From Sphingobacteriales bacterium (GTDB taxonomy: Bacteria; Bacteroidota; Bacteroidia; Chitinophagales; JADIYW01), in assembly GCA_947460245.1 (NCBI GenBank), contig CANHGL010000001.1:200437-264436 (forward strand): 64,000 nucleotides of DNA, given 5' to 3'. The first letter of the stretch is position 1, and each line of letters begins with the position of its first letter. Positions 6,843 through 44,616 of this stretch are shown here, piece after piece. Position numbers and translations under genes: made by a program. Below the pieces are notes generated by a model. It made no database searches. It saw nothing but the letters and a program-made list of their open reading frames with translations, and was not told the origin of the DNA.

Positions 6843-6899
6843 ACCCGAAAATACTGAATTTGAGGAATACTATTAACAAATAAGGGATAGAATTGTTGC

Positions 6900-14157: not shown

Positions 14158-15812
14158 TGCTTCTTTTTTATCAATAAGAACGGAGTAAAATTACCTGTTT
14201 TTTGTTCAATAAAACCATATTGTTCTGGATACTTAAGCATATTAAACAATGCGGTATCCTTTTGAATATTATATAATTGACTCAATGTTGGTGTAACATA
14301 GACAATATCTATGTTATTCTTTTTTATAATATCGCTGATCAGCAAATATCTATTTCTATAATAGATTTCATTATAATTAATGAAGTTAGGAGATAATAAA
14401 TTTGTCATATACCCCTCTACATCAAAGACGCGGACACTATCCGTGGTTTTTATTTCATGTTGTATATACCGTAGCGTAGTAAGGTTACATAGACTTTTCT
14501 GTTTTCTGAATAAATCAAAAAATTTAAAATCTTTTGCAGCAGGTGAAATGAAAAGCCATATAGATACTATGAATATCATATTTTGAATAGGGTTTTGAAT
14601 CTCCTCGGAACAGGAAGAAATCAGAAGTGCTATTAACCATAATAGCAAGGGCACTTGTAGGACAAGATAGTGCTGTCTTGGGTAAGCATATAGACAAGCT
14701 ACTACAGAAGGAATCGCCAAAATCAGTAACATAAATAAGGTAAAAATATTCTCTCTAAAGATATACTTTAGGCGTATATATTTATTGGCAGACATCCGTG
14801 CAGAAAGGAAATAAATTATCCATAAAAGTATACAACCTATCCAAACCATACTACTATCATACTTAGGAAATATACAGGTAAAGAAACTAAAAATGATTTT
14901 TCCTAATTCAATAAAATAGTTAGAAAAATTATGTAGAATATGCTGGAAAAATTCAGCAGGGTTGGTCATTAGGATTTCCTGCAAAGTAGTGGCATCCTTA
15001 AACTGCTGCTGTATAAGATTTGGAAAATCAAGCCAAAAAATATTATCAAGATGATGCCGTTCATTATATCCCCATGCATAATGTTGTAAAAAAACTCTTA
15101 ATCCTCTGCCGCTATCTCCATTATTAAATGGTGTTTTTAGAAAAATATAGATAAATAAACACCCCAGGAGCAGCACTCCAAAAATTATCCATTCTTCCAT
15201 AGAATGCTCTTTTCTAAAATAAAATGCGATTATCAGAACTAATACGAAAGAAATCAAGAAAGCAATAAAAAGCTCAGGCCTAGCATAAGCGCAGATTAAA
15301 AAAGAAAAAGAAATCCATATCAGCTTGGGGAGTAAAGTCTTCTTGTATTTGGCAACAATGATTCCTGTTAACAAAACTATTACACAGAAATGAGAAACTC
15401 TTGGCCATACCGGTAGATTGATATAGGAGGACAGGAAGAATAGAGACAGGATGAAAGACAATAACCTATTCACACCAGAAGATAACAATGCCACAAAAAA
15501 TCCAATAGAAATAAATATTGTTGTCAGTTTAAAATTGAAATAATATAGTGTAACCTTATCGCTGATAAAAACAGAAAGAAATTTATACCAGAGTGAATAA
15601 GAAGGACCCCATGTCTTAGGAATATGATCAAACAACGCCACACCCCTTTGTAGATAGAGCGCTTCATCCCAAAATAACACATCCATGTGCTGCTCAAGAT
15701 TCCATGTAATGCTGATCCCACAGATTACCAGCAAGAAGACACCGAGAAAGGCGAATCTGTCCCAAACTAGATAATTTTTTTCTGTATATCTATTTATACT
15801 CTGCCAATGCAT
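14154..15812 (-). CDS. polytopic membrane protein, GT-C fold (ArnT/PMT-like) glycosyltransferase candidate
   Basis: 552 aa with many TM helices. It has an acidic first-loop motif VLFWDEALYLQRG resembling the DE/DxD loop-1 motif of GT-C enzymes, plus a soluble C-terminal domain. It overlaps the upstream gene by 23 nt. Confidence 0.4.
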   Translation of the reverse strand: MHWQSINRYTEKNYLVWDRFAFLGVFLLVICGISITWNLEQHMDVLFWDEALYLQRGVALFDHIPKTWGPSYSLWYKFLSVFISDKVTLYYFNFKLTTIFISIGFFVALLSSGVNRLLSFILSLFFLSSYINLPVWPRVSHFCVIVLLTGIIVAKYKKTLLPKLIWISFSFLICAYARPELFIAFLISFVLVLIIAFYFRKEHSMEEWIIFGVLLLGCLFIYIFLKTPFNNGDSGRGLRVFLQHYAWGYNERHHLDNIFWLDFPNLIQQQFKDATTLQEILMTNPAEFFQHILHNFSNYFIELGKIIFSFFTCIFPKYDSSMVWIGCILLWIIYFLSARMSANKYIRLKYIFRENIFTLFMLLILAIPSVVACLYAYPRQHYLVLQVPLLLWLIALLISSCSEEIQNPIQNMIFIVSIWLFISPAAKDFKFFDLFRKQKSLCNLTTLRYIQHEIKTTDSVRVFDVEGYMTNLLSPNFINYNEIYYRNRYLLISDIIKKNNIDIVYVTPTLSQLYNIQKDTALFNMLKYPEQYGFIEQKTGNFTPFLLIKKKQ

Positions 15813-20168: not shown

Positions 20169-20253
20169 ATATACACCAAATATACGGTAATTTTTTAGTG
20201 CCCTTGTGATCAAGACTTCAAATTTGGACTAAAAAATAAATAGGTATCGTTAT

Positions 20254-22457: not shown

Positions 22458-23810
22458 TCAGGCTGACTTACGATTAGATATAAATGGGAGATACATCAAG
22501 GTATATCCAAATTTTCGCTTTATATAAACTACCCCTATGATATTCCATGCAATCATACTGATTGTATTAGCAAATGCGGCACCTGAAATACCATACTTTG
22601 GAATCAAGAGAAGACTTACAAAAATATTCATTACAGCACCAAAGAGAGAAATATTCCTAAACTGCTTATGATGCCCCGTTGCATTTAGCAGTTGTGCCAC
22701 AGGTCCGCATAGCGTGTTAAAAATCTGACCTGCGGTAAGAACAGAAAGAGCAAATGCACCCGTCATGAATGCAGAACCATACAGCCACATTATATACTTC
22801 GAACAAAAGAAGAGTAAAAGAAAAATAGGCAAACTTAAAAGAAAGATCAACTTGGCAAACTTCTGTATTATGCGTTGCACTTCTGCATGTTGTCCTTGTG
22901 TATAAAGCTGGGTAATTTTTGGCTGTACAGTAGTATTTAATGCAACAAGAAATGTAGCCGCCAGCATAGAAATATTGGTACAAGTCTTATAGATACCTAC
23001 CTGATCTGTTCCGACGCCAAAAGCCTTGAGTAAAAAAACATCTGCACTATTGACTACTAAAAAAGCAGCGTATGTTATAAACATTGGATATGCTATTGCT
23101 AAAATCTCTTTATCCTTTACCTCTACCAGTATGGGCTCTTCTTTAGAGGGCTTAATAAAATATTTATATATGGGAATCAAGGAGAATAACCAGGGCAACA
23201 AACATAAAGTAGTCCAATGCAAATAAATCGGATTATTGCTATTAAAGTAAAAATAAGTAATCAGAAATAAGATAATTATTCGGATGACCGTTGGAGTAAT
23301 CAGCGACACATTGGCAGCATGCGCCTTTAATAATGCTCTAAGGCTAAAATTATTTAACTCTCCGAGCACAAGAAAAGGAAGAAAAAAAGCAGAATAGCGG
23401 AATACAAAAAGCATATCCGGCTCCTTCCAATATGCTGATAAATAGGGGGCTATAACAAACAAAAAAATACCTCCTATAACAGAGAAATAAATAATCAGTC
23501 TATTTGCTCTTTGTAAAATTCTATAGGCTGTCTTCAGGTTATATCGTTCGCGATATTCTGGAATCAACTTCTGTAGTGCATCTTTTATTCCAAAATTGAT
23601 GAGCATTGCAAGGATACTCATCACTGTAACTAGAAGGGTAAGTCGGCCTGAAGCTGTTGCACCGTAAAATCTTGCAATCAGTATTCCAGATATAAAACGT
23701 AAACCTTGCACCAGAAGTAAAGTAAGTGCGGTGGAAAGGCTTCCTTTCAGGATAAAACTGAAGTTTTTGTCCTGCAGAAGTTGGTGTATCTTTTCTTTAA
23801 TTGTATACAA
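22458..23810 (-). CDS. wzx: Wzx-type oligosaccharide/polysaccharide flippase (MOP superfamily)
   Basis: 450 aa, about 12-14 TM helices, with typical RfbX/Wzx N-terminal (LKGSLSTALTLLLVQGLRFISGILIARF) and C-terminal regions. It is the first gene of the 12.5-kb minus-strand operon. The start codon is TTG. Confidence 0.7.
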   Translation of the reverse strand: MYTIKEKIHQLLQDKNFSFILKGSLSTALTLLLVQGLRFISGILIARFYGATASGRLTLLVTVMSILAMLINFGIKDALQKLIPEYRERYNLKTAYRILQRANRLIIYFSVIGGIFLFVIAPYLSAYWKEPDMLFVFRYSAFFLPFLVLGELNNFSLRALLKAHAANVSLITPTVIRIIILFLITYFYFNSNNPIYLHWTTLCLLPWLFSLIPIYKYFIKPSKEEPILVEVKDKEILAIAYPMFITYAAFLVVNSADVFLLKAFGVGTDQVGIYKTCTNISMLAATFLVALNTTVQPKITQLYTQGQHAEVQRIIQKFAKLIFLLSLPIFLLLFFCSKYIMWLYGSAFMTGAFALSVLTAGQIFNTLCGPVAQLLNATGHHKQFRNISLFGAVMNIFVSLLLIPKYGISGAAFANTISMIAWNIIGVVYIKRKFGYTLMYLPFISNRKSA

Positions 23811-23922: not shown

Positions 23923-25434
23923 ATGCTTTTTAACTCATTACATTTCTTACTGTTCTTTCCCATCTTTTGTTATCTCTATTTTTCGGTACCAAAAAAGCAT
24001 CAATATAAAGTGTTGATAGCCGGAGGGTATTACTTTTACGGGAACTTCAGTCCTTTCTTTGCCATCATTCTATTCATTATTACTTGTAATGATTTCTTTT
24101 CTGCGAAAATGATGGACAGGGAAGACTCCCAGCAAAAGAAAAAGAAATGGCTATACTTGAGTATGCTTGGTAATCTGGGTATTTTATTCGCTTTCAAATA
24201 CCTTGATTTTGTAGATGACAATATTCGTGCGCTATTACAAGTATTTCATATTGTTTGGGTTGTTCCTGAGCCCTGGTTTAACACCTGGATAGTACCCGTA
24301 GGTTTATCTTTTCTTACTTTTCAATCACTAAGCTATACTATTGACGTTTACAAAGGTCTCACGAAAGCAGAAACGCAATTTGGTTATTTTGCTGCCTTTA
24401 CTGCTTTTTGGCCGGTAATGGTAAACGGTCCGATTGAAAGGGCTAAGAACCTACTACCACAGATCCGACAAACGCATGATTTCAATTATGATAATATGCG
24501 AAAGGGATTAATAAGAATGACATGGGGCTTATTTAAGAAAGTGGTAATTGCAGACAGACTCTCCTTTTATGTAAATGACATGTATAGTCATTATAACGAA
24601 GTGAGCGGATGGACCATCTGGATGGGTGCTTTCTTCTTCCTGCTACAGGTATATTGCGACTTCTCCGGCTACTCTGATATTGCATTAGGCGCTGCGAAAG
24701 TTATAGGTATTGACGTAATGGAAAACTTCAGAAGACCCTTCTTCTCTAAAAACCTTGCAGATTTCTGGACACGCTGGCATATCTCCTTGTCGACCTGGCT
24801 TACTGACTATGTATTTTTCTATCTCGGGGCCTATAAAGCAAGTAGCATAAAAGTGGTCTTTAATGTAATTTTTGTACTCGCGCTATGTGGCCTATGGCAT
24901 GGTGCCAACTGGCCTATGGTTATCTCTTTTACAATGGTGGGTATCTGCATGGCTATCCGTTATTTATGGCAAAACAATGTAGTAAAAGCAATTCGTCCTA
25001 GTAACATCTATAGCCTCTTTAGTCGTTATTTCCCTGGATGGGCGCATAGTATACTCACCATTCTTATCTTTTTATTCTGCTTCTTATTATTTAGAGTATA
25101 CAGTGCACAGGTTACTATTAACCATATGCATCCCGAGACTTATACAGAATGGACTACCATAGCAGGATCTCTCTATGGAAAGCTTTTCCACCTCTTATCT
25201 GCTAATTATTTCAAGGAATTGATATTGATTAAGGGCATTATTGCTTTTATTCTATTGATCATTTTTATTGTCATCTTATTCCTCACCGAAGCGTTGATTG
25301 GCGACAGAAAGATAGAGGATGTATTATTAGGTCAGGATAGAATACAGGGTTGGTCAATCTATGCGGTACTACTGATATGTATTATATGGTTTGGTATTTT
25401 TAACAACACCACATTCGTTTATTTTCAATACTAG
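23923..25434 (+). CDS. MBOAT family O-acyltransferase (AlgI/DltB-like), copy 2
   Basis: MLFNSLHF N-terminus at ATG 23923 (the track ORF starts at TTG 23848), WTRWHISLSTWLTDYVFFYLG, and the conserved-His box CGLWHGANW. Confidence 0.85.
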   Translation: MLFNSLHFLLFFPIFCYLYFSVPKKHQYKVLIAGGYYFYGNFSPFFAIILFIITCNDFFSAKMMDREDSQQKKKKWLYLSMLGNLGILFAFKYLDFVDDNIRALLQVFHIVWVVPEPWFNTWIVPVGLSFLTFQSLSYTIDVYKGLTKAETQFGYFAAFTAFWPVMVNGPIERAKNLLPQIRQTHDFNYDNMRKGLIRMTWGLFKKVVIADRLSFYVNDMYSHYNEVSGWTIWMGAFFFLLQVYCDFSGYSDIALGAAKVIGIDVMENFRRPFFSKNLADFWTRWHISLSTWLTDYVFFYLGAYKASSIKVVFNVIFVLALCGLWHGANWPMVISFTMVGICMAIRYLWQNNVVKAIRPSNIYSLFSRYFPGWAHSILTILIFLFCFLLFRVYSAQVTINHMHPETYTEWTTIAGSLYGKLFHLLSANYFKELILIKGIIAFILLIIFIVILFLTEALIGDRKIEDVLLGQDRIQGWSIYAVLLICIIWFGIFNNTTFVYFQY

Positions 25435-25438
25435 GGAA

Positions 25439-26521
25439 ATGACAAAAAAAATACTGAAAAATATAATTATTCTATTGTGCATCATATTGCTGCTATCCAC
25501 ACTAATAAATATGACACTTCCATTTTATTGGGGTGATACAACACAAACACTAAAATTTGATTTTTATAAAAAGAATAGCGAAAAATTTAATGCCGTATAT
25601 CTTGGCGGTAGCTTAGAATACCGACATGTTGACCCTTATGTTATAGACAGTGTACTTCAAAAGAAAGGCTATGATTTTCGCTCCTTTAATATTGCTGCCG
25701 ACGGACACACTATTATAGAAGAGATGACAGATCTTGACGGATTACTAGCCGTACATAATCCAGATCTGAAATATATATTTTTCAGCATCAGTAGTGAGCC
25801 ATATTTTTTTCCTGCTAATTTGCACACTAGCAAATGGGTTTCCTGGCATTCTGCCAAGTCAACTATTCATGCTTTAAAAATTATTCCTACACTTCCCGAC
25901 GACTTGAGAACACGTGTGAAGTTCTGCTATTTCTATGTGATAAGCTGGTTGGAAAACCTATTCAAGTTGGGACAAATGCCCGAAGTGATTCGCTACTACT
26001 CCCAAAGAGACACCTATAATAAAAACTACCTGGGAACTAAAGAAAACGGATTTTATCCATATGACGATGAAGAAAGTCATTCTTTTATGGAATACAAATG
26101 GGAAGACACACTAATACGTAAATCAAAGGAAGAATACATCAACAATTCCTCCAAAAGGGATAGCTTAACTAATGACATTATATCTAGTTTTGAAAATTAC
26201 AAAGACGCTGATAAGGCAAATGCCGCAATGGTAGCCTTATGCATGGAAGCTTATAAGAAATGTGCAAAAAAGGGAATTCAATTATTTTTTATTCTGCCGC
26301 CACGCGCCAGGACTAATTATACTCTTCTGCTTCCTGTATTTAATACAATGCCGGAGGGAAGCAAGATAGAAGTTGCAGACCCCAGAAAATACCCTAAATA
26401 TTATGAGGTAGATTATGGCTATAATTTCCATCATTTAAATGATAAAGGCGCACGGCTACAAAGCATAGACATGGCTAAACAGCTAGTGGAACTAATGAAA
26501 GTCCAACGAGATACACTATAA
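25439..26521 (+). CDS. MBOAT partner protein, DltD/AlgJ/SGNH-like (pair 2)
   Basis: ATG 25439 lies 4 nt after the MBOAT stop. N-terminal TM helix, VYLGGSLEYRHVD (Ser block) and YNFHHLNDKG (His block). The layout matches the pair-1 partner. Confidence 0.5.
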   Translation: MTKKILKNIIILLCIILLLSTLINMTLPFYWGDTTQTLKFDFYKKNSEKFNAVYLGGSLEYRHVDPYVIDSVLQKKGYDFRSFNIAADGHTIIEEMTDLDGLLAVHNPDLKYIFFSISSEPYFFPANLHTSKWVSWHSAKSTIHALKIIPTLPDDLRTRVKFCYFYVISWLENLFKLGQMPEVIRYYSQRDTYNKNYLGTKENGFYPYDDEESHSFMEYKWEDTLIRKSKEEYINNSSKRDSLTNDIISSFENYKDADKANAAMVALCMEAYKKCAKKGIQLFFILPPRARTNYTLLLPVFNTMPEGSKIEVADPRKYPKYYEVDYGYNFHHLNDKGARLQSIDMAKQLVELMKVQRDTL

Positions 26522-26531
26522 CCATAAGAGA

Positions 26532-27029
26532 TTAAATCTCACCCACCACCTGATGCACCTTAAAGGTATAATAGCGTTGATACAGATAAGAAAAGGTAAT
26601 TACAAAAATCGCAGCAAAGAGTTTCGATGGCAGTGGATAAAAATGGAATACTTCTATAAATATTTTTATAAAACCTATATTCAGCAACGTACAAATAAAA
26701 ACACCTGAAAGATACCTGAATAACTGGAGCCTCACATGCACCGGAGAATTCACCCATACCACATATCTGCTCATATAAAAACCTGTAGGAAAACTCAAGC
26801 CGAAAGAAATAAAGAATGCAGCAATATGTGGACTAAAGGTGTAAAAGGGCGTTTTGAAGTTTTGCTCATGGAATAGATAATGATAGGCAATGTAGAACAC
26901 TAACGTATCTAAAAATAAATTGATACCTCCACATGCCATATATAAATACTCCTGTTTCGGAATAAACTTAAAGAACCAACTTCTAATTAGCAATAATGAT
27001 TGCCTTATGAAATCCGCCATTATGATCAT
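26532..27029 (-). CDS. GtrA family membrane protein
   Basis: 165 aa with 4 TM helices. The LYMACGGINLFLDTLVFYI opening and the size fit GtrA-like proteins. It is the last gene of the wza-PKS operon. Confidence 0.6.
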   Translation of the reverse strand: MIIMADFIRQSLLLIRSWFFKFIPKQEYLYMACGGINLFLDTLVFYIAYHYLFHEQNFKTPFYTFSPHIAAFFISFGLSFPTGFYMSRYVVWVNSPVHVRLQLFRYLSGVFICTLLNIGFIKIFIEVFHFYPLPSKLFAAIFVITFSYLYQRYYTFKVHQVVGEI

Positions 27030-27068: not shown

Positions 27069-27755
27069 TTATTTACTTTTCAATAAATCCTGGATAGTTA
27101 AATGATGTAAATCCACATTAATCATTTGATTACTAGATACGCAACAGGAGTAATGTACATTAACATTAAGTGGCTGAAAAAACAACAATCTGCCATCACA
27201 ATATATCTTATCTGAATATTTTACTCCTAAAGATATGCCTTCATTATAATCTACCTGCGTTTTTGATAAGACCTCCACACCTCTGCCATCACATTTTATA
27301 GCACTCTCTTTTATCGCCCAAAAATCAAAGAAAGCAGTTATTTTATTGTCAGCAGCTTCTATCAGCGCCCACTCATTATCACTAAAATACTTTCTAAATA
27401 AAAGATAATCGAGCTGCCGATGTTTCTCTATATCTATCCCGACTTTGGCAGACTGTGAAACTGCCAACATTACATATTCTCCCGAATGCGAAATATTAAA
27501 ATCTATGTTCCCTTCAATATATGGCCTATCTTTCTCTGTTAATTGTAACTGATGCACGCTGAAAGGAATATCCATGTGTTTGAATGCATATGACAATAAC
27601 ATTTTTCCTAAAAGAGACGCCTGTGCACTTTCCCAATGTTTGTAAGCTTTTATTTCTAACTGAATAGGTACTGGTAAATCACTAAGACATTGCTGAAAGT
27701 CTTTTTCTTCCAATCGCTGGGAATAATTAAGACAGTAGAGTTGTATATTATCCAT
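27069..27755 (-). CDS. 4'-phosphopantetheinyl transferase, Sfp type
   Basis: VGIDIEKH (Mg site) and FWAIKESAIKCDG (W/F-x-x-KE-S/A-x-x-K). ATG 27755 is preferred over the track TTG 27764. Confidence 0.8.
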   Translation of the reverse strand: MDNIQLYCLNYSQRLEEKDFQQCLSDLPVPIQLEIKAYKHWESAQASLLGKMLLSYAFKHMDIPFSVHQLQLTEKDRPYIEGNIDFNISHSGEYVMLAVSQSAKVGIDIEKHRQLDYLLFRKYFSDNEWALIEAADNKITAFFDFWAIKESAIKCDGRGVEVLSKTQVDYNEGISLGVKYSDKIYCDGRLLFFQPLNVNVHYSCCVSSNQMINVDLHHLTIQDLLKSK

Positions 27756-27790
27756 AGATCCCAAACGATAAATTTAATAACTACTCTACT

Positions 27791-30700
27791 TTAATTTTCC
27801 TGCTTATTAATGGAAGGCAGGCGCTTATCTATTTTCTTAAACCATCGCATTAAAATACCATCTTGAGCCTTGATTTCGTGCCAATCTTGCTGATTATTAT
27901 CTGCCATTTCTTGTGCAAACATAACATCAGCTAATGTTACTGCCTGAGTGGTATCTACTGCTCCACCTCCAAAAAAAGTTTCTAATAAATACTGATATAA
28001 ATCTGAAGGAGTATTGTATTGATGAAGAACCTGCATGCTTAATTCAGCGTCTACATGTTTTTCCATTAAACTTAAAAACTCACCGCTCATCATGCTATCA
28101 AATCCTTGCTCCCGATAAGTTTTATGAAGATCTACCTTCTGGCCTGCTTGCAGCCCCAATACTTTGGCTGCTTCAAGTTGCATATACGCTAATAAAGTCT
28201 CCCGTGTAGCCCTTTTAGCAGGGATACTTATCTCCTGACGAACGGCTGTTGTAGCTAAATATGTTGTTGTCTTGTGCATAAACACAGGATCATCCCAGTA
28301 TACCCTTCTGTCCCAAGCGTAAGTAGGCAACTGCACGCGATTGATGCTTTTGCCGCCATATAACCTTTGCCAGGCTATAGAGATCCCTGTAGTATATAAT
28401 TGTTGTAGCGTTTCATTAAAATACTGAACATCTTCTGTGTCTTTTTTAGCCGAGGACAACCAAACTCCATTTGAATCTGTATTGGTCTGCTTAGCCAAAC
28501 TTATTAAGACAGGATTAGGCCCAACCTCTAAGTAGATGGAGACACCCATAGTATGCTGGATCCATTGGATACCGGCTGCAAACTGCACAGCACCACGTAT
28601 ATGATTGGCAAAATAAGTAGCAGTTAGATCCTCCACGTTTAGCGGTTTACCTGTAAGATTGGATATCACCGGAATCTCAGGCTGTCTAAATCTAAACTGC
28701 TGAACATATACTGTGAAGTCTTCCAGTATCGGCTCCATTAAATGGGAATGGAAAGCATGAGAAACATTTAATGCTATTGCTCTTATCTTTTTTTCTTTAA
28801 GCTGCTCTACAAATTGTTCTACCGCTTTTTTATTTCCGGATATCGTACAGTTTTTAACTGAATTTACTGCAGCAAGATCTATAGCCGTTCCTTCCAGAAG
28901 CGGCCTTAAGTCTTCGGCACTACAGAAAACAGAGGCCATGCCGCCTTCTTGCTGTGGCAGTGTATTCATGAATGTTGCTCTGGCTACTACTAGCTTAAGT
29001 GCATCTGATACATCCATTGCATTAGCTACCGCCAATGCTACAATTTCTCCAATACTATGACCTATCAATACAGTGGGCTGAACGCCATAGTGCATCCATA
29101 ATTTGGCCATTGCATATTCTACCACAAATAATGCCGGCTGAGTAAACTTTGTCTGATGAATCAAATTACTGTCACCGTCCTGTTGCCATAGTATATCTTT
29201 TATTGATACGCCAAGAAGCGGGCGAAGAACAAGATCACACTCCTCTACCGAATTTCTAAATACTTCAAATCCGTCATAGTACCCTTGAAACATTCCAAAA
29301 TACTGAGCGCCCTGTCCAGTAAATAAAAAAGAAAGCTCCTTCCCGCCACGTAACTCAGGATTAGAGACTATATAGCTATTCGATACTACACCATTTAGAA
29401 ATGATCCTAAACCATCTTGCAATTCTTCTTTTGTATTTCCTAAAATAGATAATGCATAATCAAAATGATTCCTGCCAGTTTGGAGCGTGTTGCATATCTC
29501 TGTTAAAGTGTATCTATCCCATATATTGACATTATTTAAATATCGCTGTGCTATTCCTCTAAGACTATCCTGATTCTTGGCACTAATGATAAAATGAAAT
29601 GGACCTACTGTATCTTCCGATTTACATTTCGGCTTAGGCGCTTCAAAAATCATATGTACATTAGTGCCGCTGTATCCCGATAGATTTATAGCAACAGCAA
29701 TAGGCTTATCAGAATTGGAAAGATCAACGGGTACTGTAGAAACACAGGTATTTATTTTATCCCACTCCACATCCTCGTTCAGTGTATTGATATTGATCTG
29801 TGCAGGAATTCTTTTATTGCGAACAATCTCTATCAGCTTAAACAGCATCGGCATTCCGGTTGCTGCTTCCAGGTGCCCGATATTTGCCTTTACAGAGCCA
29901 ACATAAATTGGCGTATTCCTTCCTAGATAGCCTTCGTGAATAGACTGAATCTCTATTGCATCTGTAAATCTATTTCCTATACCATGCGACTCCACATAAA
30001 GAATATCCTCTGCCGATAGTCCGGAATCCTTAAGTGCTTCCTTTATTGCCAAAGTGATTACTTCCGGATTGGGAGCTGTGAATCCATTGCTGCTTCCATT
30101 GTGCTTTACTGCAGAACCTTTAATAACTAACTCTATATTGTCATTATCTCGTTCTGCATCGCTTAATCGCTTTAACAAGGCGACGCCACAACCCTCCCCT
30201 CTAATATAACCATCCCCATCATTAGCGAACGCTTTACACTGATCAGAAGAAGAAAGTGATCCTAATTTAGAGAGTCCGACAAACATCTCTGGTGTCAATA
30301 ATAAGTTAGCAGAAGATACTACTGCTAAGTCAATCGTATTCTTTTGTAAATCTTCTTTTGCGAGATGCAATGCCAAAACTGTAGATGCGCAGGCCGCATC
30401 CACATTATAGCTTGGACCCGTAAAATCATAACTAAAAGAAACACGACCACCGGCAGTTCCGAATAAGATACCTGTCGTATCATATACATCTACAAGTTCT
30501 AAATTGCCACTTCTAAATCTCGCTGAAATATAATCTGAATTGCCAAGCGCTATATACACTCCTGTGTTGCTTCCTTTCAGGCTTTCAGATGGTATCGCTG
30601 CATTTTCGAAAGCTTCATAAACAACTTCCAGCACCATACGTTGCAATGGATCTAAGGACTTTGCTTCACGTGGTGCAATAGAAAAAAAAGCGGCATCGAA

Positions 30701-31042
30701 ACTCCGTACGTCATTTTCTAACAAAGTGGCAAACCTTGCATTCGTCTTTCCAGGCTTATGCTCATCGGAGTCATAAATGGAGTCTATATCAAATCTATCT
30801 ACTGGAAATTTCCTGGATACCGATTTCTCGGCTTGCAAGAGCCTCCATAGTTGCTGGGTAGTATCTATATTATCAGGTAAGCGAACGCCACATCCAACTA
30901 TGGCAATTGCCTCTTTTTGTTCAGAAAATACTGTTGAAATTGTATGTTCTTTTACAGCAGCTAACTGACCTTCCAATGTCTTAATTTTTATTAGAGACTT
31001 CTGGAGCACCTGTTGCATCTGCTGTAATTGTTCGTTCGTCAT
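27791..31042 (-). CDS. type I polyketide synthase module 2: N-docking coiled coil, KS-AT-ACP, no TE
   Basis: KS: VDAACASTVLAL (Cys ~218), ESHGIGN, NIGHLEAATG. AT: GHSIGE and SHAFHS. ACP: GFDSMMSGEF. The N-terminus MTNEQLQQMQQVLQKSLIKIKTLEGQL is coiled-coil-like. About 70 aa of unassigned tail follow the ACP. Confidence 0.9.
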   Translation of the reverse strand: MTNEQLQQMQQVLQKSLIKIKTLEGQLAAVKEHTISTVFSEQKEAIAIVGCGVRLPDNIDTTQQLWRLLQAEKSVSRKFPVDRFDIDSIYDSDEHKPGKTNARFATLLENDVRSFDAAFFSIAPREAKSLDPLQRMVLEVVYEAFENAAIPSESLKGSNTGVYIALGNSDYISARFRSGNLELVDVYDTTGILFGTAGGRVSFSYDFTGPSYNVDAACASTVLALHLAKEDLQKNTIDLAVVSSANLLLTPEMFVGLSKLGSLSSSDQCKAFANDGDGYIRGEGCGVALLKRLSDAERDNDNIELVIKGSAVKHNGSSNGFTAPNPEVITLAIKEALKDSGLSAEDILYVESHGIGNRFTDAIEIQSIHEGYLGRNTPIYVGSVKANIGHLEAATGMPMLFKLIEIVRNKRIPAQININTLNEDVEWDKINTCVSTVPVDLSNSDKPIAVAINLSGYSGTNVHMIFEAPKPKCKSEDTVGPFHFIISAKNQDSLRGIAQRYLNNVNIWDRYTLTEICNTLQTGRNHFDYALSILGNTKEELQDGLGSFLNGVVSNSYIVSNPELRGGKELSFLFTGQGAQYFGMFQGYYDGFEVFRNSVEECDLVLRPLLGVSIKDILWQQDGDSNLIHQTKFTQPALFVVEYAMAKLWMHYGVQPTVLIGHSIGEIVALAVANAMDVSDALKLVVARATFMNTLPQQEGGMASVFCSAEDLRPLLEGTAIDLAAVNSVKNCTISGNKKAVEQFVEQLKEKKIRAIALNVSHAFHSHLMEPILEDFTVYVQQFRFRQPEIPVISNLTGKPLNVEDLTATYFANHIRGAVQFAAGIQWIQHTMGVSIYLEVGPNPVLISLAKQTNTDSNGVWLSSAKKDTEDVQYFNETLQQLYTTGISIAWQRLYGGKSINRVQLPTYAWDRRVYWDDPVFMHKTTTYLATTAVRQEISIPAKRATRETLLAYMQLEAAKVLGLQAGQKVDLHKTYREQGFDSMMSGEFLSLMEKHVDAELSMQVLHQYNTPSDLYQYLLETFFGGGAVDTTQAVTLADVMFAQEMADNNQQDWHEIKAQDGILMRWFKKIDKRLPSINKQEN

Positions 31043-31048: not shown

Positions 31049-34000
31049 TTAATTTACCTTATCGCTTAATTGTTTTAAGAGCTCCTCTAAGCTCAGCGCT
31101 TCTACTTCCGATTCGATAGCAGATTTTTCTTTTACTTCCATCAGACTTGCAACACTATTAAATTGTTGTTCTATTTTCAATTCTTTCGCCAGAAAGTCTG
31201 CTAATTTATTAACAGTAGGATAGGACCAGATAACAGAAACATTTAAACTTACTTTAAGGTCTTTCTGTAGTTTATTTTTAATCTGCAAAGCTAACAAGGA
31301 ATCAATACCATAACTCTTAAAGGTGTCCTCCTCTCTGATCTTGTGTTGATTTATTTTTGTTACAGAGGCGATAGCTTGTTTTATCTCTTGCTTTAAATAT
31401 TTAGTTGCTGCAGACAAATTAGCAAACGTCATGGATGTCGTATCCTCCGGAGTTTCGGTAGCTGCACTCAACACTTTAGATAAAATAAAATTATTTTTTA
31501 CATCCGGATTGCTGGCGACCCAATGATCGAAGTTAATATCCGCTGCTATAATCTGATCCAAATTACTCAAGAATAGTTTATCGAAATAATGATGTAATGC
31601 TGCGGAAGGAATGGGAACTAACCCAGATCCCTCGAGACGTTTTCCCCGATTATCATGACGCGCAGCCAATCCGACATCTGCAATAGTACCCCAATTTACA
31701 GACAAGCCCGCCATGTGATTCTTCCTTCTGAATGCAACCAATGCATCCAGAAAAGTATTAGCCGCTGCATAGTTGCTTTGTCCTGCCGAACCCAACACAC
31801 CGACTATAGAAGAATAGACTACAAAAATATCCAGGCTATCTCCTGGGAATAGGCGATGTATATTCCATGCACCATTTGCTTTAGGATATAAGGTATGATT
31901 GAACTTATCTTCTGTGCTATTCTCCAGCAATGCATCATCCAGTACTCCTGCTGCATGAAATACTCCTTTGATTTCCGGATGCATTTTTCGTATTTCTTCT
32001 ATGGTGTGCTGAAGGGTGTCAAAATTGGCAACGTCCGTAATATAAGAATGTATATGTACTCCGGCCAAAGCCTCTGCTTCTTTTTGTATAGCTGCTTTAA
32101 ATCCACTTCTACTTAATACAGCAATATGTCTCGCTCCTTTTTCCGCGAGCCACTTCACAGTTTCAAATCCCAGTCCATCATTACCTCCAGTTACAATATA
32201 GGTGGCCTCTGATGAAATGGTTTTCCCTAGCTCCTGATTTTCAGATTGTATAATGGCTGGTGCATATACTTCACTACCCCGAAGCGCCAACTCTTTATAT
32301 AGGGGGTCTGCAAAAGCAAGTGAAGGAATATTATTTATCTCCGTTTCTTTTATTTGTGCTGACAAATCTAATTGCACAAATTCCACGTTTGAATATTCGT
32401 ACTGCAGCGTTCTTATAACACCCGTCAACAAAGCTGCATTGAGATTTATCTGCTTATCCTCCGCAACATCCTTTAGTATATTAGCTCCATTAGTGATGGT
32501 AACTACCTTCAACTTTTTGTCGCCAAAATATTGTAGTATCCTTTGTAAAGATCCCACTCCTGAATTATAAGAGCAATTATAGATATCCTCTTTATGTAAA
32601 CTGCCAAGATGAAGGATACACGTAGCTTCTATACCAATAAGGTTCTCCTCTACACCTACTACACTAACTTCGCAACCCATCTCTAATAATCTATTCTCTA
32701 CTTCCTGATAATAGCCGTATGCATCTTCTATAATTAATATCTTTTGGGCAGATAGTTTAGGTTTTATCACTATGCTATTCCAATGTATCTCAAATAAATT
32801 TTCTTTTATACTAAACTGACTTTTCAATGACGCTTCCGTCAGCTTCTGTTCTACCTCTATCCAGTATCGTTCTTTTTGCCAGGCATAAGTTGGCAGCTCT
32901 ACAAATGCACCAATAGATGGATAAATGTTCTTCCAGTCAAATGGAACACCGCAAGAAAACAATGCTGTATAGTTCTTATAAAACTCTATTTGCTCGTTTC
33001 TGTCTCTTACATAAGAACCTATCACTTCGGAATTATTACTGACATCTTGTAAGTTCTCCTGAATAGCCATGAGAAGCGTAGGATGCGGGCTCATCTCTAT
33101 ATACACTGCATTATTGAGAGATGCAATGCTTTGTATAGCATTACCAAATTGAACAGGATTTCTCAAGTTATTACCCCAATATGCTGCATCCAATTCCTCT
33201 CCGCTCTTTATTTGATTAAATGCTGTTGAATAAAATTGAATAGAAGAATTTTTTGGCTGTATATTTTGAAGGCTACTTTTTAATTGCACTCTGATGTTAT
33301 CCATCTGAGGAGAATGGGATGCTACATCTACTTTTACTTTTCTGTTAAACCTTCCTTCTGCTTCCAGCTTGGAAAAAATCTCATCCAATGCGTGTGGATC
33401 ACCGGATAACACAGTGGCATTCTTACTATTCATTACGGCTACAGATAACTTGTCCTCATAGCCCTTCAAATATTCATTCGCTTCTTCCACCGTCAAATCT
33501 GTAGCACCCATTTCTCCTCTTCCACTTACCTGCTGCATCAAGTTACTACGCGTGATAATAATCTGTGCTGCTTCGTGTAGCGAAATATTTCCGGCAACAT
33601 AAGCAGCAGCTACTTCTCCCATACTATGTCCAACAACGATATCCGGAAACACACCCTTGCTCATCCATAAACTTGCCAATGCTATCTCTACAGCCACCAA
33701 TGCTGGCTGTACAATACCTATCTCGTTTAAACGAGAATGCTGTTCTTCTTTTTCAAGTTCTTCTAGTAAATCCCAGTCTACATATTTTTTATATACTGTA
33801 TTAATTTCCTCCAAGGTTGCCCTATAGACCACCTCCTGTTGCATTAAAGCGTTGCCCATCTGAGCCCACTGTGCGCCCTGACCGGGAAAAACAAAAACTG
33901 TTTTAGGTTCATCTTCTTGGTCAAATATTTTTTTGCTCTCGTAAGTTGCCGCTGAGACAAAATCACTCAACTGCTCTTCTAATTCTGCTTTATTTTTTGC

Positions 34001-35509
34001 TACGAACACCTCACGCACAGGAAAGTGCGTTCTGCGCAAAGCAGCCATAGCGCAAATATCCTCGAGAAGATAATCTGAATGAGTAATAAAATCGAGATAC
34101 TTTTTTACCAGTGCAATAAGTGCTTCTTCGTTTTTTGCCGACAAGGGAAGTATGAAGATATCATCTCTAACCTTATCTGTTTTTTCTGATGAAAGCGCCG
34201 GAGCTTCCTGTATGATAGCATGTGCATTGGTTCCGGTTATTCCGAATGTATTAACCCCGGCAATACGCGGTTTATTATCCGGCCATGGCATTGGCTCCTT
34301 AGGTATAGTAAGTCCTATATCATCCCATGCAACTTTAGGATTTGGATGATCGAAGTGCAAGCTAGGAAGAATCATATTATGTTGAATAGATACAACTGTC
34401 TTCAACAAACCCGCTAAGCCCGCTACAGCTTCTGTATGACCAAAATTAGTTTTAACAGAGCCTGCATAAATCTTATCTTCTTTAGTGCGATGATCCGAGA
34501 ATGCATTCCATATAGATTTTATTTCTGCGGGATCGCCAGCCTTCGTTCCAGTTCCGTGTGCTTCTACGTATATAATATCATTCGGGTCGATACCAGAACG
34601 TTGTATGGCTTTTCGAATCATCACCTCTTGCGTGGTAGCACTTGGTGCAAAAAGATTCTTGTGGGATTGACCGTCGCTATTGCAAGCTGTAGATAAAACC
34701 ACTGCATGAATTCGATCGCCTGCTTTAACTGCATCACTTAATCTTTTTACAATAATCATGGCGGCACCTTCACTGCGCACATAGCCTGTAGAACGTTCAT
34801 CACCAAACCTACATTCTCCATATTCAGAAAGCAATCCTGAGCGCGAATAGCCAATAGAGACAAAGAAATCTGTTATCGTATTGGAGGCCCCTACAAAAGC
34901 CATATCGCACTCTCCCGTATTTAAGCTCTGAGAAGCAATGTTAAGTGCTACCAAAGAGGAGGAACAGGCAGTATCTACTGTAAGAGAGGGACCTTGCAAA
35001 TTAAAGATATAAGATAACCTTCCTGATAATGCATAACGTCCACTTCCGGTAGTAGCATATACATCAATATCCTGATTACCATCTTTAAGCCTATGCTCAT
35101 AATCGCTGGTCCAGTTACCTACGAATACCCCTGTATTAGAACCTTGTAATACCTCATCTGTCAACCCTGCATTTTCTATAGACTCCTGGGTAACCTCTAA
35201 CAGCAAGCGCTGCGCAGGATCTATTTTTTCAGCCTCTAATGGAGAGATATTAAAGAACGCTGCATCGAAATACTCTACATTTTCTATGAAGCCTCCACGC
35301 TTAGTGATAATCTTATTCTTCTCTCTGTCCTTATTCACTAAGGCATCGAGATTAGGGATACGCGAAGCAGGATAATCAGTTATAGCATCTGTCTTATTAA
35401 TCAACAACTTCCATAAATCATCCAAAGAGTGAACGCCTCCCGGGAATCGACACCCGATGCCTATAATAGCCAAGGGTTCCAACCTGATATTGTTTAATTC
35501 CGGGTTCAC
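31049..35509 (-). CDS. type I polyketide synthase module 1: KS-AT-KR-ACP
   Basis: KS: VDTACSSSLVAL (Cys ~182), EAHGTGT, NFGHTEAVAG. AT: GHSMGE and VASHSPQM. KR: YIVTGGNDGLGFE, AAGVLDDA, SSIVGVLGSAGQSNYAAAN. ACP: YGIDSLLALQ. The start codon is GTG, and the stop lies 6 nt before the module-2 ATG. Confidence 0.9.
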   Translation of the reverse strand: MNPELNNIRLEPLAIIGIGCRFPGGVHSLDDLWKLLINKTDAITDYPASRIPNLDALVNKDREKNKIITKRGGFIENVEYFDAAFFNISPLEAEKIDPAQRLLLEVTQESIENAGLTDEVLQGSNTGVFVGNWTSDYEHRLKDGNQDIDVYATTGSGRYALSGRLSYIFNLQGPSLTVDTACSSSLVALNIASQSLNTGECDMAFVGASNTITDFFVSIGYSRSGLLSEYGECRFGDERSTGYVRSEGAAMIIVKRLSDAVKAGDRIHAVVLSTACNSDGQSHKNLFAPSATTQEVMIRKAIQRSGIDPNDIIYVEAHGTGTKAGDPAEIKSIWNAFSDHRTKEDKIYAGSVKTNFGHTEAVAGLAGLLKTVVSIQHNMILPSLHFDHPNPKVAWDDIGLTIPKEPMPWPDNKPRIAGVNTFGITGTNAHAIIQEAPALSSEKTDKVRDDIFILPLSAKNEEALIALVKKYLDFITHSDYLLEDICAMAALRRTHFPVREVFVAKNKAELEEQLSDFVSAATYESKKIFDQEDEPKTVFVFPGQGAQWAQMGNALMQQEVVYRATLEEINTVYKKYVDWDLLEELEKEEQHSRLNEIGIVQPALVAVEIALASLWMSKGVFPDIVVGHSMGEVAAAYVAGNISLHEAAQIIITRSNLMQQVSGRGEMGATDLTVEEANEYLKGYEDKLSVAVMNSKNATVLSGDPHALDEIFSKLEAEGRFNRKVKVDVASHSPQMDNIRVQLKSSLQNIQPKNSSIQFYSTAFNQIKSGEELDAAYWGNNLRNPVQFGNAIQSIASLNNAVYIEMSPHPTLLMAIQENLQDVSNNSEVIGSYVRDRNEQIEFYKNYTALFSCGVPFDWKNIYPSIGAFVELPTYAWQKERYWIEVEQKLTEASLKSQFSIKENLFEIHWNSIVIKPKLSAQKILIIEDAYGYYQEVENRLLEMGCEVSVVGVEENLIGIEATCILHLGSLHKEDIYNCSYNSGVGSLQRILQYFGDKKLKVVTITNGANILKDVAEDKQINLNAALLTGVIRTLQYEYSNVEFVQLDLSAQIKETEINNIPSLAFADPLYKELALRGSEVYAPAIIQSENQELGKTISSEATYIVTGGNDGLGFETVKWLAEKGARHIAVLSRSGFKAAIQKEAEALAGVHIHSYITDVANFDTLQHTIEEIRKMHPEIKGVFHAAGVLDDALLENSTEDKFNHTLYPKANGAWNIHRLFPGDSLDIFVVYSSIVGVLGSAGQSNYAAANTFLDALVAFRRKNHMAGLSVNWGTIADVGLAARHDNRGKRLEGSGLVPIPSAALHHYFDKLFLSNLDQIIAADINFDHWVASNPDVKNNFILSKVLSAATETPEDTTSMTFANLSAATKYLKQEIKQAIASVTKINQHKIREEDTFKSYGIDSLLALQIKNKLQKDLKVSLNVSVIWSYPTVNKLADFLAKELKIEQQFNSVASLMEVKEKSAIESEVEALSLEELLKQLSDKVN

Positions 35510-35555: not shown

Positions 35556-36614
35556 TTACTGATTTGCCATACGAAGCCTATCTTCCTCTCTACCATCTTG
35601 CACTGCTTTGCTCAACATCAGAGGAATAATAATCAAAACCAAACTCGCTACTATACCAATTGCCGTATACAGCAATTTACTTAAATATTTAGGAGCTGTG
35701 GAGAACATCGGGTCATCCACTGTTCTTACAATATTATTCTGTGGCGTGAGTCCTACTTTTGCATTCTCTCTGGACATACTCGCATCATTGTATAAAATAC
35801 TCAATGAAGCCAAATCCTGCATTAGTTTCTGTTGCGCTATAACATTCTCTCTCTTCTTGTTAAATATATTTATATCCTGTGATGCTGCTATCAATTGCTG
35901 CTTATTCGCAATTGCATTTGATATGGAATCCACTCTTCTTGAGGTATTCTCAAATGTGGTTTTTGCATTCTCTACTTGTTTATTCTGATAAAACTGTATC
36001 GTATATTTCAGCATAGCTGCACCAAGCTGTTTAGATAGCTCATAATCCGGAGTTTCCACTTCTGCCCTTATCATCCCGGTAGGAAGATCCAACTCTGCAG
36101 TCATCAAGCCATCGCTAAAATCATCATACATAGTAGAGAACAAATCCATCTCTTTCTTGCTAATTTCCCTTATAGAGTTAGCGGTGAACTTAAAGCCTTT
36201 CAACTCTGGATCATCTTCAAAACCATCGTCGTACTTATAGGCATGCATGTAAACATTAGCAATTTTTTCTCGCTTTCCATTGACTTCCATATCGGATAAC
36301 ATCGCATTGAGAAAGATAAATCTGGAGCTAAAGATTCCTGTTAATACATCATTAGATGAACCTCCGGAAAAAGAAATGCCCATCATAGACATGATACCCC
36401 CCATAGCACTGGCCTTGGAATCAACAGCATTAAACGAAATGTTTGCAATGTAAGTAGGCGGCGTAAGCTTAGCATAGAAATAGCCTCCTAAGGTTAATAC
36501 AAGCACCCCAACAACGGATATATACCATCGCTTCAATATGTATACTAAATAACTTTTAAGGGATTCTAATACATCCACTAACCGTATATCTTCTTCCGAA
36601 AATTGCTCTTGCAT
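35556..36614 (-). CDS. Wzz-type chain-length determinant protein (no tyrosine-kinase domain)
   Basis: Wzz N-terminal region (DIRLVDVLESLKSYL, then a TM helix), a long coiled-coil periplasmic segment and a C-terminal TM helix (LLYTAIGIVASLVLIIIPL). No Walker A/B motifs and no Tyr-rich tail. ATG 36614 lies 4 nt after the wza stop. Confidence 0.65.
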   Translation of the reverse strand: MQEQFSEEDIRLVDVLESLKSYLVYILKRWYISVVGVLVLTLGGYFYAKLTPPTYIANISFNAVDSKASAMGGIMSMMGISFSGGSSNDVLTGIFSSRFIFLNAMLSDMEVNGKREKIANVYMHAYKYDDGFEDDPELKGFKFTANSIREISKKEMDLFSTMYDDFSDGLMTAELDLPTGMIRAEVETPDYELSKQLGAAMLKYTIQFYQNKQVENAKTTFENTSRRVDSISNAIANKQQLIAASQDINIFNKKRENVIAQQKLMQDLASLSILYNDASMSRENAKVGLTPQNNIVRTVDDPMFSTAPKYLSKLLYTAIGIVASLVLIIIPLMLSKAVQDGREEDRLRMANQ

Positions 36615-36618
36615 ACGT

Positions 36619-41476: not shown

Positions 41477-41851
41477 TTACATCGTATGGAAATTCACACT
41501 CTTAGTGCTGGTATTTCCGGTATGGTCTTCTGCACCTACGACTAACTTATATTGCGTGGCAGCATCCACCAATTCGAATATTTCATTAACACTTGCATTG
41601 GCATGTGTGTCTATGTCTGCATCCACAATAGTATCGCTGGTGGCTGTTTTGATAATAGCAAAACTATACCCGTGTAAATCTTCATCGGTTACTGTGAACG
41701 ATACTGTTACAGAATCACCGGCATTGAACATCTGATTCTCTGTTGGAGAAGCAATCGTAATTACCGGAGCAGTGGTGTCATTTTCTTTTTTAGTACAGGC
41801 AAAAGCAATAAGAAATGCAGCTGCCATTACGAGGATTGAATATTTTTTCAT
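41477..41851 (-). CDS. small lipoprotein, Ig-like/DUF4625-like
   Basis: Lipobox LIAFAC. APVITIASP...GDSVTVSFTVTDEDLHGYSF resembles short Ig-fold lipoproteins found next to OM transport genes. The family name is from memory only. Confidence 0.45.
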   Translation of the reverse strand: MKKYSILVMAAAFLIAFACTKKENDTTAPVITIASPTENQMFNAGDSVTVSFTVTDEDLHGYSFAIIKTATSDTIVDADIDTHANASVNEIFELVDAATQYKLVVGAEDHTGNTSTKSVNFHTM

Positions 41852-41877
41852 GATTGAACGTTTTTGATTTGTTGTAA

Positions 41878-42813: not shown

Positions 42814-42840
42814 TTTTTGATTTTTTAGGTAAATAATAAT

Positions 42841-43224: not shown

Positions 43225-43263
43225 TGGTTCCTATAGATTAGACGACAAAATAAAAGAAAACAT

Positions 43264-44523: not shown

Positions 44524-44616
44524 AGTTGTAAATGAGGTTATAAAAATACAAAAAGATTGATGTAAATAAAGATTAAGATATTATTATAAGGAGAGAAGAT
44601 GGATAGGTTTAGCATT

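Follow-up and report, generated by a model that had tools for sequence, protein, structure and literature searches.

A membrane-bound O-acyltransferase and its DltD-fold partner beside a modular polyketide synthase operon: a candidate carrier-fed acyl relay in Chitinophagales

We analysed a 64,000-nucleotide stretch of DNA from a Sphingobacteriales bacterium (GenBank assembly GCA_947460245.1, contig CANHGL010000001.1, positions 200,437 to 264,436), hereafter called the window, in which a gene for a membrane-bound O-acyltransferase (MBOAT), MBOAT1 (23923..25434, + strand, 503 aa), is followed by the gene for a single-transmembrane (TM) protein, here called partner1 (25439..26521, + strand, 360 aa), that consists of an N-terminal TM anchor and a periplasmic SGNH-like domain of DltD fold. 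The open reading frame (ORF) list and the sequence place the MBOAT1 start at the ATG at 23923 (MLFNS...) and its stop at the TAG at 25432-25434, and residues M1-L2-F3-N4-S5 are invariant throughout the family in the alignment. The partner1 ATG at 25439 lies 4 nt past that stop. Its ORF ends at 26521 and converges on the minus-strand ORF of a GtrA-family protein that ends at 26532, leaving a 10-nt gap between the stops in which a search for an intrinsic terminator found none. The GtrA gene is the last of an operon encoding a modular polyketide synthase (PKS) and a 4'-phosphopantetheinyl transferase (PPTase), and the initial annotation of this DNA had proposed that the MBOAT pair carries polyketide bound to an acyl carrier protein (ACP) from a PKS devoid of thioesterase (TE) to an extracytoplasmic glycan. 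The ORFs agree with the 4-nt and 10-nt spacings and the convergent layout that it described, and its WHISLSTW, CGLWHGANW, GGS and HHLN motifs are present in the sequence. Taking the evidence below together, we consider it possible, if on the doubtful side, that MBOAT1 off-loads the modular PKS, the acyl chain passing from the phosphopantetheine (Ppant) arm of the terminal ACP to the MBOAT's own C-terminal tyrosine, on which it would cross the inner membrane, then to a DltD-fold transferase and finally to a capsule- or exopolysaccharide (EPS)-like polymer.

MBOAT1 belongs to the MBOAT superfamily, matching Pfam PF03062 with 67 bits against a cut-off of 27, and it is 35% identical over its full length to MBOAT2 (16791-18224, − strand), the second MBOAT of the window. 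It matched the DltB structures 6BUG and 8JEM (E ~1e-21; E 1e-21 to 1e-27 for the two MBOATs), and yet with the DltB model TIGR04091 both MBOAT1 (138.5 bits) and MBOAT2 (146 bits) scored below the curated cut-off of 375. The RWHISLS motif (24772..24792, + strand; RWHISLSTW being residues 284-292) includes His286, which aligns with DltB His289 in the alignment to 6BUG, and the GLWHGANW motif (24889..24912, + strand; CGLWHGANW being residues 322-330) includes the catalytic His326, which aligns with DltB His336; the former histidine was invariant in 100 MBOATs and the latter in 100 sequences. MBOAT1 runs about 113 aa past the end of the DltB-model match, with two extra hydrophobic segments at about residues 428 and 474, and terminates in the acyl-shuttle motif FVYFQY (residues 498-503, 25414..25431, + strand), which contains Tyr500. 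MBOAT2 terminates in FIYFQF, so that both proteins end in FxYxx[FY]. F-x-Y-F-Q-[FY] was found at the extreme C-terminus in 39 of 39 MBOAT1 orthologues from the loci described below and, with a single exception, in the 68 database members of the MBOAT1 clade. The motif has been demonstrated experimentally for PatA and DltX: its tyrosine is auto-acetylated in PatA, whereas in the Dlt system the motif resides on the microprotein DltX and is absent from DltB, and the published division sets acetyl-CoA users with a fused tyrosine shuttle (PatA, AlgI, WssH) against the carrier-protein user DltB with its separate DltX (PMC12148441). Given the fused C-terminal shuttle that their sequences predict, MBOAT1 and MBOAT2 are both placed by architecture in the fused-shuttle group and not in the DltB group. 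The initial annotation had regarded clustering with AlgI and PatA as evidence against a carrier-protein donor, an outcome that has come about in part, inasmuch as both MBOATs carry a PatA/AlgI-type shuttle instead of the DltB/DltX split.

In public data partner1 appears as the 336-aa protein P0001, whose start was called 24 codons too far downstream so that the TM anchor (25439-25510) is missing; the 360-aa form is backed by 60 homologues. Searches of partner1 against Pfam, NCBIfam and PDB sequences (by phmmer, and for the PDB also with a 37-sequence profile) gave no match. An AlphaFold2 (AF2) model made with the 37-sequence alignment (pLDDT 92.5, pTM 0.90) consists of a TM helix at residues 2-26 followed by an alpha/beta domain with a large helical insert. 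When this model was compared with the PDB by Foldseek, the top 12 matches were all DltD (6pfx, 3bma, 6o93, 7dxm; probability 0.99-1.0, E 5e-5 to 2.5e-3), and past these the probability fell below 0.2; PatB (7tlv) ranked 43rd with a probability of 0.13, and AlgJ and AlgX were not among the top 50 matches. Because the TM-scores of the DltD matches are only about 0.38, we speak of a DltD-like fold and do not claim membership of the DltD family; partner1 as modelled is a protein of DltD-like fold with an N-terminal TM anchor. The phmmer, profile, Pfam and NCBIfam searches found no link between partner1 and DltD at the sequence level, for members of the wider family introduced below as well, and fold comparison alone connects the two. 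With Pfam for the MBOAT and AF2/Foldseek for its single-TM, SGNH-like partner, the gene identities of the initial annotation were borne out.

The putative active site of partner1 comprises block I, GGS (residues 56-58, 25604..25612, + strand) with the nucleophile Ser58, and block V, NFHHLN (residues 329-334, 26423..26440, + strand) with His332 and with Asn329 at the position of the triad Asp. The invariant residues S58, G89, S118, N329 and H332 are spaced like Ser74, Gly104, Gln133, Asp373 and His376 of Lactobacillus plantarum DltD, and the spacing of S58, N84 and H332 is likewise DltD-like. The Ser-His-Asp triad of DltD (Ser74/His376/Asp373) is not reproduced, the Asp position being an invariant Asn329 in the partner1 clade. 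Partner1 has the block I Ser, conserved Asn and block V His of an SGNH-like protein, and none of the Pfam SGNH models matched it. Both S58 and H332 are invariant in the 58 clade members and in 136 representatives of the wider family, 133 of which also have N84.

That wider family is large. The partner profile, searched against 1.84 billion representatives, retrieved 2547 clusters (at 50% identity) with E <= 1e-3 and 1459 with E <= 1e-10, and the core domain is not represented by any model in Pfam or NCBIfam. The wider-family proteins have the same length, topology and S58, N84 and H332 signature as partner1. In the three contexts that were inspected, the partner gene lay next to an MBOAT gene with a FIYFQF end in ordinary, mainly Bacteroidota-type polysaccharide loci, and neither a PPTase nor a PKS was found nearby. 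The two groups differ at several sites: block I reads G-S-S58 in the wider family (136 representatives) and G-G-S58 in the partner1 clade (58 members); position 116 is E in 119 of the 136 and S in the clade; position 329 is D in 128 of the 136 and N in 58 of 58 clade members; and D88, H90, R291 and H331 are new invariants of the clade that have no counterpart in the wider family. They differ as well in their surroundings, the clade being tied to PPTase, TE and PKS genes and the wider family to O-antigen/EPS loci with a canonical MBOAT. The DltD-like fold is a general property of one class of MBOAT partners. Since a family of more than 2500 clusters sits in ordinary polysaccharide loci, the fold does not mark carrier-protein dependence, and the argument that the initial annotation had drawn from the DltD-like partner is weakened.

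The MBOAT1 clade is discrete, with about 90 clusters at identities of at least 48% followed by a drop to 42% or less. Its members have replaced the canonical WF[RK]DYxYIPLGG[NS]R, the empirical mark of the nearest MBOATs outside the clade, by a clade-specific motif, which in MBOAT1 reads WLTDYVFFYLGAYK (residues 292-305, 24796..24837, + strand). TWLTDY[VIL]F[FY][YFP]LGAYK[AS], located just past the first catalytic His, was present in 68 of 68 full-length clade members, including those without a nearby PKS, whereas the 30 nearest outgroup proteins, MBOAT2 (YIPLGGNR) and the MBOATs adjoining wider-family partners all have the canonical [ST]WF[RK]DY.YI[PS]LGG[NS]R. The MBOAT1 motif aligns with DltB residues 295-312, and in DltB this is where DltC docks: Met302, Val305, Ile306, Met309 and Lys312 of the horizontal HC helix make up the docking face at the entrance to the cytoplasmic tunnel (PMC11035591). 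In the work on PatA, conserved arginines were described that line a putative acyl-CoA pocket on the same MBOAT face. Nine of the 15 positions that are fixed differently in the clade and the outgroup fall within residues 293-336. The MBOAT1 clade and the partner clade have both altered their most conserved donor-side or catalytic motifs, and we infer from these sequences that the joint changes may reflect a new donor or a new acyl group.

The convergent operon encodes two PKS proteins. PKS1 (31049..35509, − strand) has the Pfam domain order ketosynthase (KS)-acyltransferase (AT)-ketoreductase (KR)-ACP without a loading module, and PKS2 (27791..31042, − strand) has KS-AT(HAFH)-ACP followed by a conserved tail of about 60 aa and no release domain. 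With their KS-AT-(KR)-ACP sets and active-site Cys, His and Ser, the two proteins have the features of a cis-AT modular type I PKS. Judging by the order of domains, the absence of a loading module, the active Cys of each KS and the HAFH of the second AT, an acetate starter would be extended by the two modules to a small 3-oxo-5-hydroxyacyl chain, which would be close in size to the groups handled by an acetyl or D-alanyl relay. The AT of PKS1 (33314-33325) reads VASH where malonyl-specific ATs, that of PKS2 included, read HAFH, and PKS1 may use an extender unit other than malonyl-CoA. The serine of the terminal ACP of PKS2 is Ser983, in GFDSMM as against the usual GxDSL. Met+1 and Glu+5 past this serine had been considered as a DltC-like signature, a proposal that was dropped because no tool result stood behind it; Glu+5 is common in ACPs. 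The tail (residues 1025-1083, 27794-27970) reads GGGxIDTTQA...DWHEIK...LLRWFKKIDKKLP, is kept even in the most distant loci (it was also found in L005, L008, L010, L012-16, L025-33, L038 and L043), and may, to judge from its sequence, be a docking element for a downstream partner or a membrane-association element. The operon continues with the Sfp-type PPTase (27069..27764, − strand; PF01648 and PF22624), which gave weak matches to the AusB, HetI and AcpT models, and ends with the GtrA-family small membrane protein (26532..27029, − strand; PF04138).

Searched with hidden Markov models (HMMs) of the TE (39 orthologues) and of the ACP (56 segments), the window yielded neither a TE homologue nor a stand-alone ACP, and the PKS ACPs are its only carrier domains. 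The gap between PKS2 and the PPTase gene is 26 nt (27765-27790) in the window, and in most relatives a discrete TE gene occupies this place (the comparison covered L005, 12268-12969, and 38 other loci); of the 39 partner genes in related loci for which the sequence extends 3 kb or more downstream, 25 have a discrete type II TE nearby. The description of the PKS as lacking a TE in the initial annotation is thus correct for the window, in which PKS2 ends with its ACP and tail, and does not extend to the relatives. The best solved matches of the relatives' TE, RifR, RedJ, SrfD and YbtT, are type II enzymes. Type II TEs mostly serve for editing, although they can also release a product, as in the case of RedJ, and the TE therefore neither rescues nor kills the off-loading hypothesis. 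Its absence from the window means that the TE is either dispensable or encoded elsewhere in the genome. Other candidate carriers were examined and rejected. An 84-aa ORF in L004, considered as a stand-alone ACP, is not one, and P0217, P0222 and P0224, which look like short 'ACP + tail' proteins, are pieces of PKS2 produced by frameshifts on error-rich contigs. No carrier was found among the ORFs around PPTase-TE in L002, L006, L022, L023, L030 and L041. Two long metagenome contigs that contain the cluster, L050 and L051, have many frameshifts, which give rise to spurious short 'ACP' and 'KS' proteins in public sets.

A partner-seeded scan of species-representative genomes yielded 37 loci, and exact-match look-ups added seven further loci with members of the clade, including the ENA metagenome scaffold to which the window is identical; the neighbourhoods were scored by tblastn with the window proteins and the TE of one relative. 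The relatives are all metagenome-assembled genomes (MAGs) of Chitinophagales, Saprospirales or Sphingobacteriales. An Sfp-type PPTase gene lay no more than 9 kb downstream of the partner gene in 27 of the 35 distinct loci that had at least 3 kb of sequence on that side. When we required at least 8 kb downstream (30 partner genes, four loci giving two each), 22 had the PPTase, 20 the TE and 14 PKS2. This linkage spans partner identities from 31% to 71% and has outlasted insertions (AT3, a paralogue of a 552-aa protein described below), the presence or absence of GtrA, whose gene about half of the relatives have between those for the PPTase and the partner, duplications, and the loss of flanking glycan genes. 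The link between the pair and the PKS/PPTase operon that the initial annotation saw at one locus is therefore a feature of a deep clade. In L041 (8502-13723) the MBOAT-partner pair is present as a tandem duplicate, and in L034, L035 and L043 an extra partner gene ahead of the MBOAT gives the order partner-MBOAT-partner.

In some loci the linkage is broken. Seven of them (L002, L004, L006, L023, L024, L030 and L041) have no PKS next to the pair but keep the PPTase there, in most cases together with the TE. The flanks of L002 and L006 consist of housekeeping genes, and in L002 (MAG GCA_020636535.1, 11173-20224) the MBOAT1-partner1-PPTase-TE unit abuts an ExbB-ExbD-ExbD-TonB-PBP-citrate synthase block, so that PKS1-PKS2-PCP-Wza and Wzx-GT4 are absent from that locus; in the window, the same block lies about 17 kb off, at 41477-48819. 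L002 keeps both MBOAT pairs. A reciprocal scan of metagenomes seeded with the PKS2 ACP plus tail recovered the complete arrangement in L055, L057, L060/62, L065, L069 and L073; more distant PKS2-like genes stand alone in L070 and L072. The suggestion that PPTase-TE is tied more tightly to the MBOAT pair than to the PKS was ruled out, as L052 and L053 break on one side of it and L002, L004 and others on the other. With breaks on both sides of PPTase-TE, the linkage is strong but not obligate.

Genes for the synthesis and export of a polysaccharide surround the pair and the PKS genes. The PKS operon is headed by a Wza-type polysaccharide export protein (36619..39063, − strand; Poly_export and five SLBB stretches), followed by a PCP/Wzz-like protein (35556..36635, − strand) for which the sequence predicts a TM segment at both ends and a coiled-coil middle. 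The latter matched no family in Pfam or NCBIfam, and its gene is kept between Wza and PKS1 in relatives. On the other side of the pair, a Wzx/MurJ-type flippase gene (22458..23810, − strand; Pfam) is divergent from MBOAT1 and adjoins it in most relative loci; the genes for an AT3 acyltransferase (21250-22428, − strand) and a GT4 glycosyltransferase (20254-21246, − strand) lie beyond it.

We propose that MBOAT1 and partner1 would together relay an acyl group across the membrane to a hydroxyl, as the two-protein MBOAT-SGNH systems of bacteria do. The donor, a thioester, would bind the cytoplasmic face of MBOAT1; His326, with His286, would hand the acyl group to Tyr500 of MBOAT1's own FVYFQY shuttle at the outer face; and the membrane-anchored, DltD-fold partner1 would accept it on Ser58, with His332, and esterify a hydroxyl of a glycoconjugate. 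The order His326 to Tyr500 to partner Ser58 to acceptor is well supported by the published shuttle mechanism together with the FVYFQY end predicted for MBOAT1, and on the strength of sequence, modelled fold and the published mechanism combined we regard it as very probable that the two proteins form an acyl-tyrosine relay for the O-acylation of an acceptor outside the cytoplasm. The best candidate for this acceptor is a surface glycoconjugate that would be made and exported by the products of the surrounding Wzx, GT4, PCP and Wza genes and by the polytopic proteins without family described below. The donor would be a Ppant-tethered acyl group instead of acetyl-CoA, in the simplest case the 3-oxo-5-hydroxyacyl product of diketide extension on Ser983 of the PKS2 ACP. 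The pair would then off-load a PKS without a release domain while decorating the polymer, and the type II TE of the relatives would serve as an editing enzyme. The whole relay, with direct transfer from the PKS2 ACP to MBOAT1, we advance tentatively, as a serious possibility that falls somewhat short of being probable.

The proposed relay shares features with each of the two known types of MBOAT-SGNH system. The Dlt pathway, in which DltA and the carrier protein DltC, the MBOAT DltB, the shuttle microprotein DltX and the SGNH protein DltD D-alanylate teichoic acids, resembles the present pair in joining an MBOAT to a single-TM SGNH protein of DltD fold, in its relay logic (His to Tyr to Ser to polymer) and in having Ppant chemistry encoded next door, here as the PPTase and the carrier domains; moreover, the remodelled stretch of MBOAT1 aligns with the DltC-docking helix of DltB. 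Unlike the Dlt system, the shuttle is fused to the MBOAT and does not reside on a DltX microprotein; the window lacks the dltA/dltC/dltX operon, with neither a DltA-type adenylating enzyme nor a stand-alone carrier; partner1 has no match to the DltD Pfam model and has Asn in place of the triad Asp; and the host is a Gram-negative member of the Bacteroidota, the candidate donor being a modular PKS ACP. With PatA/PatB, AlgI/AlgJ/AlgX/AlgF and WssH/WssI the pair shares the C-terminal FxYxxF-type shuttle on extra helices, a separate extracytoplasmic SGNH-type partner with an N-terminal TM helix, and a polysaccharide locus. Those systems differ in the canonical WF[RK]DYxYIPLGG[NS]R, which is replaced throughout the MBOAT1 clade; partner1 resembles DltD and not PatB (Foldseek probability 0.99-1.0 versus 0.13); and no association with PPTase, TE or PKS is described for the PatAB, Alg and Wss systems (PMC12148441). 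A third comparison is with mycobacteria, where terminal-ACP polyketides are moved directly to an alcohol or sugar and not hydrolysed, by PapA5 acting with Mas and by the TE of Pks13 acting on trehalose. The mycobacterial transferases are soluble or act in cis, and are cytoplasmic, whereas the proposed MBOAT would also move the acyl group across the membrane.

Several observations favour a carrier-bound donor. The PPTase, type II TE and PKS neighbourhood is conserved, and PPTase-TE stays with the pair where the PKS is not adjacent. All 68 full-length clade MBOATs have rewritten the stretch that aligns with the DltC-docking helix, and in the partner clade the active site has been rebuilt (D329N, E116S, GSS to GGS). 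The PKS lacks a cis-acting release domain, its ACPs are the only carriers in the window, and PKS2 has a conserved 60-aa tail after the ACP, as expected for downstream docking. Finally, the canonical MBOAT pair and the AT3 protein of the same locus could supply ordinary acylation. The transfer of ACP-bound polyketide to a glycan that the initial annotation had suggested is supported in part: the linkage, the rewritten motif and the rebuilt partner site speak in favour, whereas the fused shuttle and the non-obligate nature of the linkage do not.

Other results weigh against a carrier-bound donor. So far, a fused shuttle is known only from MBOATs that use acetyl-CoA, the PatA/AlgI group, and DltB, the only proven carrier-dependent MBOAT, has none (PMC12148441); nor does the score of MBOAT1 come near the equivalog cut-off for DltB. 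The wider partner family accompanies canonical MBOATs in ordinary glycan loci, and a search of the window found no dltA- or dltC-like gene and no adenylating enzyme. Most relatives hold a thioesterase able to release the polyketide. In L052 and L053 the PKS operon is followed by housekeeping genes without the pair, no PPTase lies near the partner in 8 of the 35 loci, so that linkage is not obligate, and two-sided breakpoints are what is expected of one large co-inherited cluster. The synteny counts are moreover inflated by shared ancestry, because all loci come from one order-level lineage. An AF2 model of the PKS2 ACP with its tail was uninformative (pLDDT 42).

In a rival reading, the pair is an ordinary O-acetyltransferase or transferase of another short acyl-CoA, while the PKS supplies another portion of the same glycoconjugate, such as a lipid aglycone or anchor that the type II TE sets free; we regard this as a real possibility, though not as the probable explanation. 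The neighbourhood would then be a single shared biosynthetic cluster without direct hand-off. The fused FxYxx[FY] shuttle as in PatA/AlgI-type MBOATs, the 35% identity of MBOAT1 to the canonical MBOAT2 of the same locus, the wider partner family in ordinary glycan loci without PPTase or PKS, linkage broken on either side of PPTase-TE and the discrete TE of most relatives are all in accord with it, and a PKS-made lipid primer is conceivable because a scan of locus genes turned up no initiating phosphoglycosyltransferase. An acetyl-CoA donor leaves unexplained, however, why WF[RK]DY..IPLGG[NS]R was lost in the MBOAT1 clade alone, why the partner lost its triad Asp and E116, and why PPTase-TE stays with the pair where the PKS is gone. 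Furthermore, the window encodes no TE that could release the polyketide, and its AT3 protein and canonical MBOAT pair could already provide for acylation.

The seven loci in which the four-gene unit has no adjacent PKS, and among them the L002 unit beside the ExbB-ExbD-TonB-PBP-citrate synthase genes, suggest another arrangement, in which the relay is fed by a carrier or thioester other than the PKS2 ACP (the fatty-acid AcpP, a carrier encoded elsewhere, or a longer acyl-CoA), MBOAT1-partner1-PPTase-TE being self-sufficient and the PKS an accessory in some lineages only. The remodelling of the donor-side motif in all clade members, including those without a nearby PKS, is consistent with such an arrangement. 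It is nonetheless unlikely: no stand-alone carrier was found in the window or in the PKS-less loci inspected, the apparent short ACP proteins are fragments of PKS2, and the PKS may sit elsewhere in those draft MAGs. It is very improbable that the pair and the PKS are functionally unconnected, the position of the pair being inherited gene order in one Chitinophagales lineage and its clade-specific residues neutral drift. Although every locus comes from one order-level group of MAGs and differences fixed in both groups are expected to cluster in the most conserved region anyway, the neighbourhood persists where partners are only 31% identical, through insertions, tandem duplications (L041, L043) and flanking-gene loss, and two proteins altered their most conserved catalytic or donor motifs together.

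The clade combines features that the published division keeps apart, namely a fused shuttle, a DltD-fold partner, a rewritten donor-side motif and a PPTase/type II TE/PKS neighbourhood. If the donor is truly an ACP, the MBOAT-SGNH dichotomy of the literature would be broken; MBOAT1 would be the first carrier-dependent MBOAT outside Dlt and the first to off-load a modular PKS. Transfer from the PKS2 ACP would also provide a new route for polyketide release from an assembly line without a release domain, and a polyketide-decorated polysaccharide in Chitinophagales would represent a novel class of acylated polymer on the surface of bacteria that abound in activated sludge and freshwater. Within an incomplete coverage of the literature, no report of a carrier-dependent MBOAT other than that of Dlt came to light, and nothing relevant was found on PKS genes with MBOAT or Wza/Wzx in Bacteroidetes. 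Even if the donor is acetyl-CoA, the analysis has delimited a family of MBOAT partners that is very large (more than 2500 clusters) and has so far gone unannotated, and it describes an uncharacterised PKS-plus-Wza/Wzx supercluster.

The remaining genes of the glycan locus lie to the left of GT4. MBOAT2, with its canonical motif, is paired with partner2 (15790-16788, − strand), a single-TM protein with a GGS block and a YHLNAEG block. We considered partner2 as a member of the partner1 family and rejected a clear assignment, as it gave only a marginal C-terminal match (E ~0.003-0.01 in an 18-sequence database). The MBOAT2-partner2 pair was found again in L002, L010 and L033. Next to it are genes for three conserved proteins (11313..15812, − strand) of 552 and 444 aa, with about nine TM segments each, and of 508 aa, with one TM segment. 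None of the three matched a Pfam or NCBIfam family; they co-occur in L007, L014, L023-25, L028 and L030, and they are likely candidates for polymerase or glycosyltransferase-like (GT-C-like) components of the locus. Paralogues of the 552-aa protein lie between the partner and PPTase genes in some loci. A gene for a PhoD-like phosphatase with a C-terminal sorting domain of the T9SS type (18252-20213) is located inside the glycan locus and is kept there in many relatives, among them L008, L010, L013, L014, L026, L033, L051 and L055. Upstream of the glycan locus is a carotenoid-type gene set (4355-8988), which encodes two amine-oxidase/phytoene-desaturase-like flavoproteins, a Caroten_synth protein and a Rieske oxygenase.

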